Source: a virus
Lineage: Duplodnaviria; Heunggongvirae; Uroviricota; Caudoviricetes
DNA length: 11,394 nt
IMG/VR virus record: IMGVR_UViG_2695420412_000022
Location: 1-11,394 of that record
Strand: one strand, 5' to 3'
A program made the position numbers and the translations under genes. Below, one piece after another: positions 1 to 7,478 of the stretch; position 1 is the stretch's first letter; each line of letters opens with the position of its first letter. The notes below the pieces were generated by a model. The model had not been told where the DNA came from. It did not search any database and saw nothing but the letters and a program-made list of their open reading frames with translations.

Positions 1-171
1 TCAATAAATCCCATCATTGCGATCAACCTCATCCTTAACCATTGATGCGAGCAGTTCTTCCAGTTTCTGCGCTGACAGCTTTACCTGGTGATCTTCAGCA
101 TCTTCCCGGGCTATTGTGGTTCGCGCAGTGGCTGATTTTGCTGACATCACCACAGGGGGCAGACGGACCAT
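1..171 (-). CDS. hypothetical small protein (56 aa from the ATG at 171; alternative in-frame starts at 147 and 282)
   Basis: Open frame ending at a TGA at 3..1. The ATG at 171 is preceded by GGAGG about 10 nt upstream. No recognisable motif; it lies downstream of the short Tfa-like ORF on the same strand. Confidence 0.3.
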   Translation of the reverse strand: MVRLPPVVMSAKSATARTTIAREDAEDHQVKLSAQKLEELLASMVKDEVDRNDGIY

Positions 172-235
172 TGAACCATGGCCTCCGGAACAAATAAGGG
201 CAAAAATAACAACCACTATCGAAAGCTCACAAACT

Positions 236-451
236 AACCGCAGCACGTTCCTGTATACGACGTGTCTGCGGCATAATCCCAATGATTACTCCCTGACAGG
301 ATTTGCAGGCCACTCAATATCAGGTGCAGTTGATGTATCAACACGATTCAACAATACCCGATATTTATTCCATGCCTCCAGCAACGATCTTTCTTCCTCC
401 GTTGCGATTTCCAGATCTACAGCATCCTGCAGTGGCGCAATATACTCACTG
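236..451. repeat. direct repeat copy A (~215 bp, roughly 88% identical to 1286..1500): tfa 3' end plus ~50 bp downstream
   Basis: Base-by-base comparison with 1286..1500 shows the same sequence with scattered substitutions and a 1-nt indel. Homology stops abruptly at 451/1500. Confidence 0.85.
238..271. other. conserved stem-loop just downstream of the Tfa-like ORF stop (copy A)
   Basis: ccgcag-cacgt / acgtg-t-ctgcgg inverted repeat (6+5 bp stem with a 1-nt bulge, 11-nt loop). The equivalent hairpin is at 1288..1320. Confidence 0.4.
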
Positions 452-555
452 AATTCCTGGATGTAGAACTGTGTGGTGACGGTCTTCCAGCCATTCGGCT
501 CCTGCTGTATCGAAGCATACCAGGCTATTTCAATATCGCTATGCTGCGGCAGCAT
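286..555 (-). CDS. short tail fibre assembly (Tfa)-like protein, 89 aa; a Tfa C-terminal domain fused to a unique 35-aa N-terminus; possibly a remnant
   Basis: The C-terminal ~54 aa ([45 protein letters not shown]) are near-identical to the C-terminus of the full tfa at 1335..1919. It has its own ATG, an AAGGGG ribosome-binding site and an in-frame stop immediately upstream. Confidence 0.55.
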
Positions 556-582
556 TTAACCCCTTGTAATTCATCGCCATAA

Positions 583-611
583 TTGATTTAATTCACAAAT
601 AAAACTATAAC
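583..611 (+). promoter_or_regulatory. candidate sigma70-like promoter (TTGATT-N17-TATAAC) upstream of the methyltransferase ORF
   Basis: Hexamers read by eye in an AT-rich spacer. The TATAAC hexamer abuts the ATG at 612, so this fits better with the alternative start at 624. Weak evidence. Confidence 0.2.
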
Positions 612-1280
612 ATGGTGAAATTAATGAAAAAAAACACAGATGATGGGGCTAAAATTTACACACCACTTACCCTAAAGCTTTATGACTGGTGGGTTTTGGG
701 AGTATCAAATTGGCTTGCATGGGGATGTCCTACAAAGGAACACCTTCTTCCACACTTTCTGGAACATTTAGGTAACAACCATCTGGATATTGGTGTTGGA
801 ACTGGGTTTTACCTTACTCACGTACCTGAGAGTAGTCTGATATCTTTAATGGATTTGAACGAAGCTAGCCTGAACGCGGCATCTACAAGGGCTGGGGAAT
901 CAAAAATTAAACATAAAATTAGCCATGATGTTTTTGAACCTTATCCCGCGGCGTTACATGGTCAATTTGATTCCATTTCCATGTTTTACCTTCTTCACTG
1001 CCTGCCTGGAAATATAACTACAAAAAGCTGTGTAATACGCAATGCGGCGCAGGCCTTAACTGACGATGGAACTCTATACGGAGCCACAATTCTTGGCGAT
1101 GGAGTTGTGCACAATAGCTTCGGTCAAAAACTGATGCGCATTTACAATCAGAAAGGCATCTTTTCAAACACAAAAGATTCCGAAGAAGGCTTAACACATA
1201 TACTCTCAGAGCATTTCGAGAATGTTAAAACCAAGGTTCAAGGTACTGTAGTAATGTTTTCCGCTTCAGGGAAAAAATAG
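612..1280 (+). CDS. putative class I SAM-dependent methyltransferase (222 aa); phage cargo (moron) gene
   Basis: Rossmann-type motif I LDIGVGTGFY (aa 57-66), an acidic residue about 18 aa later (LISLMDLNE), and a motif II-like FDSISMFYLLHCLPG. The gene is visibly AT-rich compared with the flanking tail genes and runs opposite to them. The ATG at 624, preceded by GGTGA, may be the true start. Confidence 0.6.
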   Translation: MVKLMKKNTDDGAKIYTPLTLKLYDWWVLGVSNWLAWGCPTKEHLLPHFLEHLGNNHLDIGVGTGFYLTHVPESSLISLMDLNEASLNAASTRAGESKIKHKISHDVFEPYPAALHGQFDSISMFYLLHCLPGNITTKSCVIRNAAQALTDDGTLYGATILGDGVVHNSFGQKLMRIYNQKGIFSNTKDSEEGLTHILSEHFENVKTKVQGTVVMFSASGKK

Positions 1281-1285
1281 CATCC

Positions 1286-1500
1286 AACCGTAGCACGTTC
1301 TTGCTTAAGACGTGCTGCGGCATAATCCCAATGATTACTCCCTGACAGGGTTCGTAGGCCACTCAATATCAGGTGCAGTTGATGTATCAACACGGTTCAG
1401 CAACACCCGATACTTTTTCCAGGCTTCCAGCAATGAGGTTTCTTCCTCCGTTGCAATTTCCAGATCTGCAGCATCCTGAAGCGGCGCAATATGCTCACTG
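1286..1500. repeat. direct repeat copy B (~215 bp) matching 236..451: tfa 3' end plus ~50 bp downstream
   Basis: Same alignment as copy A. Begins 6 bp after the methyltransferase stop. Confidence 0.85.
1288..1320. other. conserved stem-loop just downstream of the tfa stop (copy B)
   Basis: ccgtagcacgt / acgtgctgcgg: an 11-bp stem with one G-U pair and an 11-nt loop. The stem is conserved with copy A while the loop sequence differs. Confidence 0.4.
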
Positions 1501-1919
1501 GCTACCTGCATCAGGTTGTTTTTTGTTTCTTCCGCCTCCCGGATCCGGAACAGTTTTTCTGCTTCCGTATCCTTCACCCAGGCTGTGCCGTTCCACTTCT
1601 GAAACTCCCCTTCCGGCGATAACCAGGTAACATTTTCCGGTAACGGACCGAGTTCAGAAATAAATAACTCGTCCCCTGACGCTACGTCATAAACCGTTTT
1701 ACCCCGATGGTCTTCAACGAGATGCCACGATGCCTCATCACTGTTGAAAACAGCCACAAAGCCAGCAGGAATATCTGGTGGTGCAATATCGGTACTGTTT
1801 GCTGGCAGACCTGTATGAGGCGGAATATATGCGTCACCTTCACCAATAAATTCATTAGTTCCGGCCAGCAGATTATAAATTTTTATGGTCCGTGCTTGTT
1901 CACTCATTCTGAATGCCAT
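1335..1919 (-). CDS. tfa: tail fibre assembly protein Tfa (194 aa)
   Basis: The full-length protein ([44 protein letters not shown]...[11 protein letters not shown]) closely matches lambda Tfa as I recall it. Its ATG overlaps the stf TAA stop (TAATG), consistent with translational coupling. Confidence 0.93.
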
Positions 1920-4900
1920 TATGCAAGCCTCACAATATAGTTAAATGCGATGTTTTTGACGGTGTTTTCCGCGTTACCCGCAGCGTTAACGGTGATGGTG
2001 TGTCCATGTGAACCAATCGCAACGGAGTGCGTATGCGCACCAATACCTACAGTATGTGCATGTGCGCCAGAACTTGCTGCAGTACCAGACAGCGAGTGGG
2101 TATGAGCACCTGCTGACTGTGTCTGAATACGTTGATAATACGATCTATAGGAAGAAGTCTCCGGGCTTACTTGATACTGTGAATTCTGGACATAAGTGAA
2201 CCCACCGCCATCATAAAATGCTAACGCAGAACCGCCGCCTCCTGGCCAACGAATACCATTACCATGAGTATGAACACCGGCAGACCCCGTAGAGCCACTC
2301 AGACTGTGCGTATGCGCCCCGGTGTTATTCGTGGATTTAGTGCCGTAATCAAACGACGATGTGGTTTTCGTCCCTAAATCCGTACTGGATGCGCTGGCGC
2401 TGTGGGTGTGCGATTTAATGCCGTCCTGTTCCTGAGACAATATGGCCCGACCACTGGCGGGCTTGCCCTTAATCATCCAGCCACGCATATCAGGGATCAC
2501 GCCTGACGGATAAGCAGCTGCAAGTTTCGGGTAAGCAGATTTGTCAAAAGTCTGCCCCTGCATCAGGGCATAACCAGACGGAACGGTATCTGATGGCCAC
2601 GGGATTGGTGCGCCGACTGGGTAGCTTTCTGGTGGAAGATTTTTCGAGGTATAAACTTCTGCCCAGTCTTCCTCAAAACCATAACCGTCTCTTGAAGAAC
2701 GGTAGAACAGACCACCATTTCTGTAATGCGCCTTCATCTGCAAGGTCCGGCAACTTCCGACTCCGGTATAGAAGTTAACCAGAATATAGCTGTCGCCAGA
2801 GCGAGTGACATTGTAAGCGCCTGATTCGGCATTCCAGGGAACGCCCCCATCCGCATCGGCATACGTATCCGTTGCTCTTCTGGCAAAAGCAGCAACATGC
2901 GCAGCGGTTAAAGTGATATCAGTAGAACCATCAAACGAAACACCAGATATTTTTATTGCTGTCTGAAGTTTCGTAGCTGTATCAGAATTTCCCTTAATCC
3001 CCTTAGGAGAATTAAGTGGTGTATTGATCGTCACTTCACCTGTTGCGTTATTTACTGCAAATGGTCGAAGACCGTTCCAGCCACCGTACTGGTCGCCTTT
3101 ATCAGTCATGAGCAAGTAAGTATTTGCTCCATCATTTCGCCATATGACACCGTAATCACCTGCAATCATCCTTAACGCGTTCTGACTACGGACAATAACT
3201 TCATCATTAGCGTAAATCTTATTCCCGCTAATGTCTGACTTACTCAAAACAGGATACGAACTATAAAATCCATTACCTTGTTTAAAATCTAAAATTAAAT
3301 TTACCGCAACTGATNNNNNNNNNNTCCAGCCGCGCATATCTGGAATAACACCTGAAGGATAGGCAATAGCCAGTTTCGGATATGCTGCCTTATCAAACGT
3401 CTGCCCCTGCATGATTGCATAACCTGCAGGTGGTGTATCTGATGGCCACGGCAGCGGAACACCTGGCGGAAACGCTTCAATATTTGCCGAGCCGTCAAAT
3501 TTTACGCCGTTAATTGTCCTTGCAGTTTGCAATTTGGTTGCTGTGCTTGCATTACCCGATAAAGATCCAGTGATACCACCACTCGCGTTTAATTTAGTTG
3601 CAATTGTAACATTGCCAGTATGGTTACTAATTATAAACGGCCTTAAGCTATTGTGCGTACCAAGACTGTTACCCGAATCTGTCAACATAAAATATGTGTT
3701 TGATCCATCATTTCGGATAAAGAATCCATAGTTGCCATAGGCAATACGCAGACCATTTGCTGACCTTGAAATAACCTCACCAGCAGCAGTTAAACCACCT
3801 GAAAGAGTCCCTCCAGTTAATGCCAATGCCCCAATATTTGAAGGGGTCAATGTGATATTTGCACTACCATCAAATGACACACCGTTAATCGTTCTGGCTG
3901 CCTGAAGTTTCGTGGCGGTCGCAGCATTACCTGTAGTGTTTTGATTACCGGTAGCGTTGACTCCAGGCAAGTTGATATCTGCCGATCCATCAAATGCCAC
4001 GCCCCCAATCTTACGTGCTGTCTTGATCTTGGTCGCAGTATCTGCGTTTCCGGTCAAATTACCAGTAACACTACCACCAACTTTTAGTCCATTACCGATG
4101 GACACCAACCCTGATCTTAAGTTTATAGAGAATGGTCTTAATGAACCGATGTCTCCATTTTCCCCCTCCCCTTCATTAGTCGGAATAAGATGAAGATGAT
4201 CTTCGGAACGCCTAAAAATAAGGCCAAAGGCTTGGTTGAATATTCGAAGAGCATTTATCGTGCTGATTTTTAACTGCCCTCCCATTGTGTCGCCAGTTTT
4301 TTGAACTGAACTATCTTTAACAGTTTTAACTGCCTTTGGCGTTGCCGCCAGCTTTTCACTGGTGCTGTTTGTTGCACTGCTGAGCTGTACTATCCCCTTT
4401 TTCGTCGTGCTCGCATCCTCCAGCGCTACGGCGGATGCAATATCCTCAGCCCGTTTTGCTGCTGTCTCGGCGCGCGTTGCCGCGGATTCAGCAGCAACTT
4501 TGCTCTGAGATGCAGCCGTCGCACTGCCTGCCGCCTCTGATGCTTTCGTTGTTGCTGTCGTGGCACTACCTTTCGCTGCTGACGCTTGTCTGGTCGCCTC
4601 ATCTTTTGAAGCAGACGCAGATGATGCCGATGACGCCGCTGAACTGGCTGACGATGCGGCTGCCGCCTTAGAGGAAGCAGCATTGTCTGCTGAAGTCTTT
4701 GCATTTGTTTCAGAGGTTTTTGCTGCAGAAGCAGACCTCGCTGCTGCAGTGGCTTGCTCAGTGGCTTTGCCAGCCTTCGTTGTGGCTGTTGAAGCGGATG
4801 ATGCGGCGCTTTCTGCCGATTTTCCGGCGGCGGTGGCACTGGCTGAGGCCTGCCCGGCACTTGTTGACGCGGCACTGGCAGATAATGCAGCCGCTGTTTT

Positions 4901-5794
4901 TGAACCTGCCGCAGCTGAGGCGCTCTGTCCCGCTGCTGTTTCAGAAGACTTAGCGTTCGTCTCGGACGTTTTTGCCGCCTTCGCGGAATTTCCTGCCGCC
5001 GTTGCCGAGGAAGCTGCACTACTGGCACTTGATGATGCATTCGTTTCTGAAGATTTCGCTGCCTCTTTTGAGGCCGCCGCACCCCGTGCCGAGGTGGCAG
5101 CTTCTGACGCCTTCGTGGTCGCTGTGGATGCAGAAGTGGCTGCCGATTTTTGTGATGCTGCGGCATTCGTTTCTGACGTTTTCGCGGCACTGGCGCTGGT
5201 AGCTGCCGCGCTTTTTGATGACTCTGCAGCAGCAGCACTTTTTGCTGCTTCACGGGCCTTTGTCGATGCCGTTCCTGCGCTGGAAGACGCTGACTGAGCC
5301 GAGGACGCGGCCTGTCCGGCTGACGTGTTGGCGGCACGTGCTGAGGCTGCAGCATCGGTTGCATGAGTTGCCGCCTCGCTGGCTGATGCACTGGCATCGC
5401 TGGCTGATTTTTTCGCGGCTGCCGTATTCTGTGCAACCGCGGAGGCGTTACGTGACACCTCTTCCACCATCTGCTCAAAGCGGCGCAGTGCCTCCGGTCG
5501 GACATCATCCTCCGTCATGGCACCGAGAAAATCATTCAGCGTACCTGGTCTGGAACCTTCATAGACGGTAATGGTCCCGGCATGTGAAGGCGGAAAACCT
5601 TCAACCAGCAGGGTGACGCTGTACTGACCATGCTCAACATCCATGCTGTAACGTCCGGCTTCATCCGGATTTTCAGAGGCCACCGTGTTCACCACCACCG
5701 TGCTGCTGGTTCGTCTGGCCTTCAGCACAATGGTGCAGTTCTGTACTGATTTTCCTGTGCCATCTTTAAGCACGCCAGAAATTTTTACTGTCAT
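1919..5794 (-). CDS. stf: side tail fibre protein Stf, long form (1291 aa)
   Basis: The N-terminal ~115 aa ([26 protein letters not shown]...) resemble lambda Stf. They are followed by a long Ala/Ser/Thr-rich tract with recurring KTSETNA motifs, four ~28-aa [22 protein letters not shown] repeats, two copies of a PWPSD...GQTFDK...YPKL...PDMRGW module, and a His-rich HxH C-terminus (GAHTHS, GAHAHT, GSHGHT). The frame reads through the 10-N gap. Confidence 0.9.
3315..3324. other. assembly gap (10 N) inside stf
   Basis: A run of n in the sequence, directly beside the first PDMRGW module. Confidence 0.99.
4400..5446 (-). repeat. low-complexity Ala/Ser/Thr-rich coding repeat region of stf (approximate bounds)
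   Basis: The translation is dominated by A, S, T and K with recurring SETNA motifs. GCN-rich codons produce long spurious ORFs in other frames on both strands. Confidence 0.7.
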
Positions 5795-5808
5795 ACTTTT
5801 CCACCAAT

Positions 5809-5840
5809 AAAAAAAGCCCGCAGCAGTGACGCCACGGGCT
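5809..5840 (-). terminator. candidate intrinsic terminator after lom copy 2 (weak)
   Basis: On the minus strand: a GCCCG...CGGGC stem with a 14-nt loop followed by a 7-T run, just upstream of the stf ribosome-binding site and ATG. Confidence 0.35.
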
Positions 5841-5945
5841 TCAGGACAGTGTAACTTTACGTTTCCTCAAACGCAGTTCACCCCATAAGGTGGATGAACC
5901 TGCGTATCATAACAATATTTACAGAAGATAAATCGGCGTCTGTTG

Positions 5946-6545
5946 TCAGAAACGGTATCCGATACCAACAATAAATGCATCCGTTCGCCAGTCGCCACTA
6001 CCGGAACCTTCATAAGCAAGGTCAATGGTCACGGATTCGGTCGGATTAAACTGCACGCCAGCCCCCCACGCCAGAGACGTGTTGCTGTGGCGACCGTCAT
6101 CACTTCCGGTCAGCACGTCGTGCGTTTTCCCCTTGTTGTCAATTACGCGGAGATAATCCCCGGAGAAAGTCGACACACGGCTGTAAGCCACACCCACCAT
6201 CGCATACGCGCTGAACCATTCATTCACGCGTACAGACGGCCCCGCCATCACGCTGAACCAGCGGTTACGCACGGAATCTTCATGCCAGCGGGTATCGCTG
6301 TAGCGCGTTTTTTGCTCATCCTCAGCATTGGCATAACTGAAGGACGTAATCAGCCCCAGCGCGTCCGTAAACTCATAACGGTATTTCACGTTAATCCCGT
6401 TCAGATCATCACTACCGGGAACGTTCGTCGAGGCATGGAGATACCCCGCGCTCAGCGTGGACTGATGTTCTGCTGCACTCGCTGGCGTAGCAGCGGCGAC
6501 CTGCCAGACTACTGCGGACAAAATAACAGCACATAATTTACGCAT
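5946..6545 (-). CDS. lom: Lom/Ail-family outer membrane protein, divergent copy (199 aa)
   Basis: Full-length beta-barrel protein with a signal peptide and the conserved Lom core (GINVKYRYEFTD, RWHEDSVRNRWFSVMAGPSVRVNE, GAGVQFNPTESV). A GAGG ribosome-binding site precedes the ATG. It differs from copy 1 mainly in the signal peptide and the SYANAEDEQKT segment. Confidence 0.9.
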   Translation of the reverse strand: MRKLCAVILSAVVWQVAAATPASAAEHQSTLSAGYLHASTNVPGSDDLNGINVKYRYEFTDALGLITSFSYANAEDEQKTRYSDTRWHEDSVRNRWFSVMAGPSVRVNEWFSAYAMVGVAYSRVSTFSGDYLRVIDNKGKTHDVLTGSDDGRHSNTSLAWGAGVQFNPTESVTIDLAYEGSGSGDWRTDAFIVGIGYRF

Positions 6546-6569
6546 AATTACCTCTCGCTTTTCTGCAAT

Positions 6570-6593
6570 AAAAAAGGCGCCATTTCTGGCGCC
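6570..6593 (-). terminator. candidate intrinsic terminator between the J 3' fragment and lom copy 2
   Basis: Minus strand GGCGCC-AGAAAT-GGCGCC hairpin followed by TTTTTT. Confidence 0.45.
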
Positions 6594-6612
6594 CGTATCT
6601 GGGTTATAAAAT

Positions 6613-7144
6613 TCAGCTAATCGTGATGCCTGCAGTGGCTTTCTTCATCACCACAACCAGCAAATCGCTGATACTTGCTGTGGGATACCAGTTATTTACC
6701 AGCCATGCTGACACCGAAAACTCCAGTGTCATGTGACCGTGACCGGCAGGCATATCAATAACACCACTGTAAATCAACGTATTATCCAGCGCGGTACGGT
6801 TATAAATTTCAGCACCGTTTTTCCGTACTATCAGGCGGCATGACGAATAAATATCGTTATTCTCCCGCTCATGTTTAGCGCCGCTGAATGCCACCGCCGG
6901 AATAACAATCTGCCGGTCAAACGGCTGATCGTCATAAACCCTGACGGTGATGGTCCCTGATGGCCACCGTTCCGGTGCACGGGAGTCCCGGGGGAAAGCT
7001 TTGCCCACTGTTTTAACGAGATCGCCTTCAATCTGGTTGGCGGACAATTTTCCCAGAACCCGACAGTTCTCGTTAATCGTGACGTTGTTGAGCGTCCCGG
7101 AGTTCGCATTCACGTTACCGCTGATATCGGCATTTTTCGCCGTC
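6613..7144 (-). pseudogene. J C-terminal fragment (last ~177 codons), duplicated, with no start codon of its own
   Basis: Nucleotide sequence identical to the J 3' end at 8146..8677. The upstream side is joined at 7145 (an N) to a stf 5' fragment in a different frame. Confidence 0.8.
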
Positions 7145-7145
7145 N

Positions 7146-7414
7146 AGAAAATCATTCAGCGTACCGGGTCGGGAATCTTCATACACGGTGATGGTCCCGG
7201 CATGTGACGGCGGGAATCCTTCCACCAACAGAATAACGCTGTACTGACCGTACTCAACGTCCATGCTGTAACGCCCGGCTTCATCCGGATTTTCTGAGGC
7301 CAGCGTGTTCACCACCACCGTGGTGCTGTTACGTTTTGCTTTCAGCTGGATTGTGCAGTTCTGTACCGGTTTTCCTGTGCCGTCTTTCAGTACACCTGAA
7401 ATCTTTACTGCCAT
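7146..7414 (-). pseudogene. stf 5' fragment (codons 1-89, [26 protein letters not shown]...LNDF), truncated at the joint with the J fragment
   Basis: About 85-88% identical to the 5' end of the full stf and closer to lambda Stf as recalled. The frame runs into J-derived sequence out of frame and stops at 7115. Confidence 0.8.
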
Positions 7415-7425
7415 ATTCACCCCAC

Positions 7426-7452
7426 AAAAAAGCCCGCCTGAACCGGCGGGCT
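7426..7452 (-). terminator. candidate intrinsic terminator after lom copy 1
   Basis: Minus strand AGCCCGCC-GGTTCA-GGCGGGCT hairpin (8-bp GC-rich stem) followed by TTTTTT. Confidence 0.55.
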
Positions 7453-7478
7453 GTCATAACACTGTGTTACCTGGCTAA

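Follow-up and report, generated by a model that had tools for sequence, protein, structure and literature searches.

An intact ybcY-type methyltransferase gene between tail-fibre-assembly gene repeats in a lambdoid tail-fibre module

The locus and its gene

Near the left end of the DNA analysed here, a window of 11,394 nucleotides from a Caudoviricetes virus (IMG/VR record IMGVR_UViG_2695420412_000022, positions 1 to 11,394), a gene for a predicted S-adenosylmethionine (SAM)-dependent methyltransferase lies beside the genes of a lambdoid tail-fibre module. Judged by its sequence, it is the intact form of the Escherichia coli K-12 gene ybcY. The longest open reading frame (ORF) occupies 612..1280 (+) and encodes 222 aa; RefSeq also starts the gene at ATG 612, and the RefSeq protein WP_022645610.1 has identical coding sequence (CDS) coordinates in strain 203740. 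The true start is probably ATG 624, which gives a CDS at 624..1280 (+) and a product of 218 aa, because M5 of the longer frame is the first residue in all 32 aligned homologues and in the phrog_2132 profile, the Citrobacter orthologue has AGG where the window has ATG 612, and a Shine-Dalgarno-like GGTGA site is found at 614-618, 5 nt 5' of ATG 624. The call of this CDS draws on the ORF, on Pfam and phrog_2132 matches, on homologue starts and on an AlphaFold2 (AF2) model.

The first-pass annotation, which had been made from the letters alone, described the gene as transcribed opposite to the tail genes, and it is indeed convergent with them, including the tail-fibre-assembly gene tfa immediately to its right (1335..1919, −). 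This tfa is intact, encodes 194 aa and is identified by Caudo_TAP (E 1.9e-44), phrog_105 and the accession WP_000885577.1. Between the convergent stop codons lies a stable hairpin (1288..1320; dG -21 kcal/mol, z -4.9) without a U tract. At the left edge of the window, a remnant of a DUF4376 or tail-fibre-type gene (1..282, −) is annotated as a pseudogene in RefSeq and matches phrog_1141/7703. RefSeq also lists a 45-aa CDS at 1225-1362 (−) that extends across the 3' end of the methyltransferase gene, the hairpin and the stop codon of tfa. One genome has it as 'hypothetical protein', K-12 derivatives as 'nucleocapsid protein'; the call is probably spurious and its name misleading.

The gene had also been called visibly more AT-rich than the flanking tail genes. 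Its GC content of 0.409 and GC content at third codon positions (GC3) of 0.356 are lower than those of tfa (0.480 and 0.441), stf (0.504 and 0.417), lom (0.545 and 0.585) and J (0.563 and 0.668), and the 68-nt spacer upstream of it has a GC content of 0.265. The contrast is real but moderate, since distal stf (3000-4300) has an AT content much like that of the methyltransferase gene.

Identity with ybcY and occurrence in E. coli and its phages

In the cryptic prophage DLP12 of K-12, the same gene is present with 99.0% DNA identity over 686 nt, together with the same promoter hexamers, the same tfa-derived flanks and the same divergent tfaX-type ORF. The K-12 copy lies between the tfaD and tfaX remnants, beside appY, ompT and envY, and is annotated as frameshifted; the gene pair is named ybcY/tfaX (PMC3946193). 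In this copy 2 nt are deleted, namely the G of ATG 624 and one A from the A8 run behind it. Thus, ybcY of K-12 is a pseudogene, whereas the window copy is intact and its right-hand tfa is full-length within a complete tail module. The A8 homopolymer (627-634) directly follows ATG 624, at the same spot as the K-12 deletion, and may be slippage-prone.

As a sequence feature, the gene is already known and annotated, and nothing about it is new. The 686-nt gene region was detected in 3,798 of 5,426 complete E. coli genomes (~70%; ≥98% identity over ≥80% of the region), with up to 4 copies per genome, annotated as 'class I SAM-dependent methyltransferase'. The first-pass annotation knew of no methyltransferase cargo at this position in well-known lambdoid phages, an impression that is incorrect, given that ybcY of DLP12 occupies it and that the gene occurs in about 70% of genomes. 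Between the window protein and WP_022645610.1 or phrog_2132 there is no difference of substance, and neither of these entries assigns a substrate. Searches of 50,697 phage records by tblastn retrieved 14 E. coli copies with at least 98% amino-acid identity and one partial record, and no divergent phage homologue. These 14 copies, whose DNA is likewise at least 98% identical, come from lambdoid phages, among them 2G7b, ev243, Turner, Kati and the PhiR series. The phage copies form one near-identical clade, which indicates a single capture followed by spread. The full-length protein cluster has 6,589 members; truncated clusters also occur, for example one of 161 aa with 445 members.

Direct repeats of tfa ends and an empty allele of the same prophage

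A repeat search and a blastn self-match identified two direct repeats of ~227 nt around the gene, copy 1 at 236..462 and copy 2 at 1286..1511, which are 88–89% identical (87.7% over 227 nt in the blastn self-match) and spaced by 1049–1050 nt. Each joins the terminal ~175 nt of tfa to the ~50 nt that follow it, hairpin included; in copy 2 the tfa part is the 3' end of the functional gene. The gene therefore does sit between two tfa-derived repeats, as originally proposed. The unique sequence enclosed by them (463..1285) is a self-contained module made up of the 5' part of a divergent small ORF, an intergenic promoter region and the methyltransferase gene.

Comparison with complete genomes revealed a clean presence/absence polymorphism of this cassette, the outcome of the synteny comparison that the first-pass annotation had suggested. 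In strain 203740, a prophage at the ompW/yciE-trp site carries, in order, J, lom, stf, tfa, the methyltransferase gene, a tfa remnant and the DUF4376 remnant. A hypothetical empty-site query, built by joining 1-235 to 1286-1900, gave a single collinear match in four genomes at 97.8–99.3% identity. One of these, strain EFF60, has the same prophage at the same site, with identical Tfa (WP_000885577.1) and Lom (WP_001228316.1), but there tfa lies directly before the DUF4376 remnant, which forms the outer flank in occupied and empty alleles alike. A three-way alignment showed that the single repeat of EFF60 is a hybrid, copy-1-like up to a 35-nt identical stretch (1315..1349, equal to 266-300) that spans the tfa stop codon, and copy-2-like beyond it. 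This identical stretch is therefore the crossover zone of the empty allele, and the hybrid junction indicates that the cassette has been gained or lost by homologous crossover between the direct repeats. The EFF60 junction could be either a deletion of the cassette or, reciprocally, the state before its acquisition. The cassette is thus a tidy example of tail-fibre-assembly gene ends serving as recombination handles for cargo exchange.

Duplicated ends of a tail-fibre-assembly gene beside a tail-fibre gene are also seen in the invertible tail-fibre segments (the G segment of Mu, the C segment of P1 and the P segment of e14, with the invertases Gin, Cin and Pin). Those segments are bounded by inverted repeats, whereas the repeats of the window are direct and no inverted pair was found in 1-2000, and we rejected an invertible segment for this locus. 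No invertase gene was found in the annotated neighbourhood of the 203740 and EFF60 loci in the complete genomes. The Rfam family RF02111 (IS009, a candidate E. coli small RNA) matches 1378-1576 (−) with 225 bits. It appears to model tfa coding sequence, because the match lies wholly within the coding 3' half of tfa; repeat copy 1 scores under the RF02111 threshold.

The small ORF that diverges from the methyltransferase gene (286..555, −; 89 aa) is a chimera of the tfaX type. It matches phrog_2341 over its full length, phrog_3893 on residues 3-37 and Caudo_TAP on residues 31-86, so that its N-terminal ~37 aa are of the phrog_3893 type and its C-terminal ~56 aa represent the Tfa C-terminal domain. 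In RefSeq the ORF is classed as a partial tfa pseudogene, and in phage 2G7b two short CDS take its place. In Citrobacter freundii, we found a copy matching the cassette (window 469-1290, 91.5% identical) without tfa flanks. The divergent ORF there (79–80 aa) is a full-length phrog_3893 protein that has only its first 37 aa in common with the E. coli ORF. Because the Citrobacter cassette lacks tfa flanks and holds a full-length phrog_3893 gene, the ancestral module was probably a divergent pair, formed by the methyltransferase gene with a small phrog_3893 gene. The left end of this module would have become joined in E. coli to a tfa 3' end, which would have created the repeat. The Citrobacter island also holds a DinI-family gene (Pfam) and an ORF that, by eye, looks like an S24 peptidase. 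In phage 2G7b, the same module stands beside a different tail-fibre set and is followed by an alpha/beta hydrolase gene, ompT and int, an order that echoes ybcY-tfaX-appY-ompT of DLP12.

These arrangements also bear on the idea that the enzyme is a protein methyltransferase acting on the adjacent tail fibre or on the Tfa chaperone. The one point in its favour is the position beside stf and tfa. The gene is oriented against these genes and has a separate sigma-70-type promoter-like site, the empty-site prophage encodes an identical Tfa, 2G7b pairs the gene with a different tail-fibre module, and most homologues are non-phage, namely solitary chromosomal genes and fungal genes. We regard such a role as very improbable.

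Classification as a moron

Lambdoid morons include bor and lom of lambda and the morons of HK97 and HK022, and cargo is also found distal to tail-fibre genes, as in the exchangeable effector loci of O157 prophages. Like these, the window gene is an extra gene that is variably present in otherwise identical prophages, deviates in composition and may have a promoter of its own, with the tail-fibre genes on one side and the attachment-site end on the other. It differs from them in that the cassette is bounded by 227-bp direct repeats of the end of a structural gene, allowing gain and loss by homologous recombination, and in that no canonical terminator was detected, while expression in a lysogen is something we infer. 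Two hallmarks of morons were found directly: the cassette is present in 203740 and absent from the collinear EFF60 prophage with the same Tfa and Lom accessions, and the GC and GC3 of the gene lie outside the ranges of its neighbours (0.48–0.56 and 0.42–0.67, respectively). The cassette is thus quite likely moron-type cargo at the distal end of a lambdoid tail-fibre module. Composition, orientation, the tfa repeats, presence/absence and in vitro promoter evidence from K-12 all support the horizontally acquired moron that the first-pass annotation had proposed; methyltransferase family matches and a Rossmann-like fold were also found, and GC and GC3 are distinguishable from those of the neighbours.

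A class I methyltransferase with a family-specific N-terminal helix

Four Pfam models matched the protein above their cutoffs: Methyltransf_12 (37.5 bits; cutoff 30), Methyltransf_23 (28.7; 27), Methyltransf_25 (27.8; 27) and Methyltransf_11 (24.7; 21.2). The protein also matches phrog_2132, of unknown function in PHROG, over the full length (residues 5-222, E 3.9e-155). The class I motif I that had been pointed out in the translation, LDIGVGTGFY, corresponds to residues 58-67 of the 222-aa ORF, in the context H57 L58 D59 I60 G61 V62 G63 T64 G65; a strict regular expression for motif I failed only because residue 57 is H. Across 33 homologues D59, G61, G63, G65, D81, D106 and H129 are invariant. 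The acidic residue described as correctly spaced is D81, 16 residues after G65, which ends a predicted strand (76-81) and so takes the class I acidic beta2 position. In class I methyltransferases, the acidic residue that ends beta2 binds the ribose hydroxyls.

Modelling with AF2 from a 33-sequence alignment gave a confident structure (predicted local distance difference test, pLDDT, 90.1; predicted template modelling score, pTM, 0.86), in which two helices (18-36 at the N-terminus, then 41-52) precede a core of seven strands in class I order, Rossmann-like and ending in a beta hairpin. The structure prediction and fold search thus agree with the Pfam result, and the window protein is a single-domain cytoplasmic class I SAM-dependent methyltransferase of predicted activity, an identity that rests on the fold and the SAM-binding motifs. 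The Trp-rich N-terminal segment that had been singled out as unusual, YDWWVLGVSNWLAWGC, covers residues 24-39. Much of it is a family trait (Y24 D25 W26 W27 V28 L29, N33, W37 and C39 are invariant across the family), but W34 is peculiar to the window sequence and is Arg in K-12 and phage 2G7b.

A profile search against the sequences in the Protein Data Bank (PDB) retrieved juvenile-hormone-acid methyltransferase (JHAMT; 8.7e-6) and UbiG (~1e-3), and in the alignment the segment FYTLHW of JHAMT stands opposite FYLLHC of the ybcY-type family. JHAMT (7ec0), UbiG (4kdr) and bacterial PmtA (8ys9) share with the window protein the Rossmann-like fold, GxGxG, the beta2 acidic residue and a His after beta4. 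Identity to these and other class I small-molecule enzymes is just 12–21%, and the YDWWVL...W.C helix and the HN.FG..LM..YN.KGIF.N..D segment are particular to the ybcY-type family. A His just after beta4 is catalytic or substrate-binding in several such enzymes, for example RebM and the phosphoethanolamine methyltransferases, and H129 may by analogy be equivalent to the post-beta4 His of RebM-type enzymes.

The nearest neighbours raise the question whether the enzyme is a membrane-peripheral lipid or quinone methyltransferase, one that docks on the inner membrane by its Trp-rich helix and methylates a prenylquinone or the head group of a phospholipid, so that lysogenic conversion would alter envelope or respiratory chemistry. 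Structural and sequence neighbours do include a phosphatidylethanolamine (PE) N-methyltransferase of similar length (8ys9, TMt 0.65) and UbiG/Coq5, the N-terminal helix (18-36) is indeed rich in Trp, and NCBIfam gave weak matches to RquA and PmtA. These matches reach only 15–17 bits against cutoffs of 175–390, however, and the helix is modelled confidently as packed on the core like a substrate lid, leaving no free anchor. Lipid or quinone genes were found nearby in none of the genomes examined. No evidence raises this explanation above other small-molecule options, and we consider it doubtful. Separately, the NCBIfam matches to CpaM, RquA and PmtA were rejected as assignments, being ten-fold or more under cutoff.

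Orphan DNA methyltransferases are frequent in phages, and DNA stood on the first-pass list of candidate substrates. A DNA methyltransferase would either protect phage DNA from restriction or mark host DNA. The protein contains neither a motif IV of the type [DNS]PP[YFW] nor PC[QK], and its lone ENV, at residue 203, falls in the C-terminal hairpin region. A product of 218 aa is too short to include a target-recognition domain. The top structural matches contain no DNA methyltransferase, all of the nearest being enzymes that act on small molecules, lipids or tRNA; the Pfam families matched are generic small-molecule types, and PADLOC returned only a match with E 0.019. We therefore drop DNA from the list: as far as sequence and modelled fold allow, DNA methylation can be excluded with fair confidence, and a DNA methyltransferase is an extremely unlikely identity for this gene. 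A defence-system component was likewise rejected, the sole PADLOC match being mad2 (E 0.019, 11.8 bits).

Expression signals

Immediately upstream of the gene, sigma-70 promoter-like hexamers (TTGATT-17-TATAAC; 583..611, +) were found as an exact match that occurs once in the window, with 0 expected by chance. This TTGATT/TATAAC pair is listed for ybcY as a constitutive promoter in a genomic-SELEX catalogue of RpoD-holoenzyme binding in K-12 (PMC3946193, Table 1), and the ybcY-tfaX spacer is flagged there as an H-NS binding site, again in vitro and in K-12 (PMC3946193). A consensus scan also picked out an alternative promoter-like site (TTAACC-16-CATAAT; 556..583, +) that would give a ~34-nt leader holding the GGTGA site; such sites are no more numerous in the region than shuffling leads one to expect. 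Structure in the leader (560-640) is no better than chance (z -0.02), indicating no riboswitch-like element, and an Rfam search of 463-1285 gave no match.

Relatives outside phages and selection

Outside phages, homologues that are 55–67% identical occur in Salmonella, Enterobacter and Yersinia as solitary genes at differing non-phage chromosomal positions, and more distant relatives in Pseudomonas and Aeromonas, retrieved with a fungal profile, are likewise solitary. Basidiomycete and lichen fungi carry family members with the same invariant motifs, which suggests, as judged from the sequences, a transfer of the methyltransferase family between bacteria and fungi. The members from wood-decay basidiomycetes and lichens are 42–59% identical among themselves, and Pseudomonas proteins are ~45–48% identical to the fungal query; the Trametes versicolor gene is intronless and adjoins a Plavaka transposase. 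In all, the family comprises 1,743 clusters at 50% identity (E<1e-3), with the signature YDWWVL..SN..AW.C, LLHCLPG and HN.FG..LM..YN.KGIF.N..D. Literature searches on ybcY, tfaX and lambdoid phages combined with methyltransferase returned no functional study and no report of expression or of a transcription start for an intact copy.

The ratio of nonsynonymous to synonymous substitution rates (dN/dS) was 0.22 against Citrobacter, 0.11 against Salmonella and 0.12 against Enterobacter, and values of 0.1–0.2 indicate that the protein is under purifying selection. This bears directly on whether the gene is a neutral hitch-hiker in E. coli, which would be kept by the recombination-prone tfa repeats and spread with tail-fibre modules without a current function. 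Such a state would fit the K-12 copy inactivated at its start codon by the 2-nt deletion, the truncated protein clusters, the empty alleles in the same prophage and the H-NS-bound promoter region. Against it stand the full-length cluster of 6,589 members, the occurrence of the gene in 70% of genomes, at as many as 4 copies per genome, the low dN/dS relative to the nearest relatives and the retention of the gene in 14 phage records, for some of which a propagation host is listed, for example K-12 or E. coli C. On balance, we think neutrality unlikely.

Proposed function

Taken together, these data make it probable that the gene is ybcY-type cargo, a small-molecule- or lipid-directed methyltransferase that serves the lysogen and recombines via the tfa repeats. 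In a lysogen it would be transcribed independently of the late operon, from its own sigma-70 promoter and damped by H-NS. The product would transfer the methyl group of SAM to a small-molecule or lipid-like acceptor rather than to DNA, and a small molecule or lipid is the most likely acceptor class. The acceptor pocket would be formed by the invariant N-terminal helix (Y24 D25 W26 W27 ... W37 C39) and the post-beta4 pair H129-C130, with H129 at the position of the aligned His in JHAMT. By detoxifying or modifying a metabolite, the enzyme would benefit the host or lysogen and not the assembly of virions. Tam and TehB are solitary methyltransferases that detoxify or modify metabolites, and the ybcY-type enzyme would resemble them by analogy, with no claim of homology.

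Several observations weigh against this proposal. Two large protein searches and one exhaustive representative search yielded only generic names, with no characterised close homologue among thousands of relatives. The NCBIfam equivalogs PmtA, RquA and CpaM are all far below cutoff (15.7 against 390, 16.9 against 175 and 17.3 against 180 bits), and we detected no conserved operon partner in Salmonella, Enterobacter, Yersinia, Citrobacter, Pseudomonas, Aeromonas or Trametes. For the promoter, the evidence comes from in vitro binding in K-12, in which ybcY is a pseudogene, and the proposed -10 abuts ATG 612, so that the message would be nearly leaderless, starting just before ATG 624. A terminator scan found no intrinsic-terminator-like site for the methyltransferase gene. 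Finally, the gene is dispensable, as seen in K-12 and in several truncated clusters.

A bolder proposal, to which we give a small probability, is that the gene is the founding member of an uncharacterised bacterial–fungal methyltransferase family and that, in lysogens relieved of H-NS, its product methylates either a membrane-associated lipid or quinone or a toxic compound of exogenous origin, altering host fitness or phage susceptibility. If true, such a role in lysogenic conversion would explain the spread of one near-identical allele to ~70% of E. coli genomes. The residual value of the gene is as a functional target: it is among the most widespread prophage cargo genes of E. coli, in a family of ~1,700 clusters with no characterised member found, and the natural occupied and empty alleles of the same prophage provide a ready-made isogenic comparison. 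To the existing annotation, our analysis adds the exact limits of the cassette, a probable correction of the start codon, the finding that the tfaX-type ORF is a chimera, the evidence from occupied, empty and hybrid junctions that tfa ends recombine with each other, and the extent of the uncharacterised family.

The remaining tail region of the window

Further into the window, a segment composed of the stf N-terminus, lom and the J C-terminus is tandemly duplicated within 5526-8677 (5956-7144 against 7489-8677, 92.9%; 5526-5821 against 7146-7437, 84%). A single N is present at 7145, and a J C-terminal fragment meets an stf N-terminal fragment exactly at this position. Collinearity with the window was seen in none of the complete E. 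coli genomes, of which the best covers 90% in 3 pieces over 9.0 kb. In 5526-8677, tail regions of two different prophages seem to have been joined during scaffolding or assembly, unless the stretch is a mosaic; 1-2000 is unaffected.

A run of ten N (3315-3324) lies inside stf (1919-5794), a 1291-aa tail-fibre ORF whose counterpart in strain 203740 is only 3027 bp. Here one fibre segment, of receptor-binding type and with the terminal residues ...DMRGW, gives way to another (2476-2602 against 3325-3451, 78%); the run probably marks a gap in the scaffold, across which two fibre genes have been fused in frame. Over its N-terminal third (4400-5500, −), the tail-fibre protein is a long low-complexity region, rich in Ala, Ser, Thr and Lys, with a GC content of ~0.6, which yields long spurious ORFs in other frames, for example 4426-5508 (−) and 4560-5297 (+).

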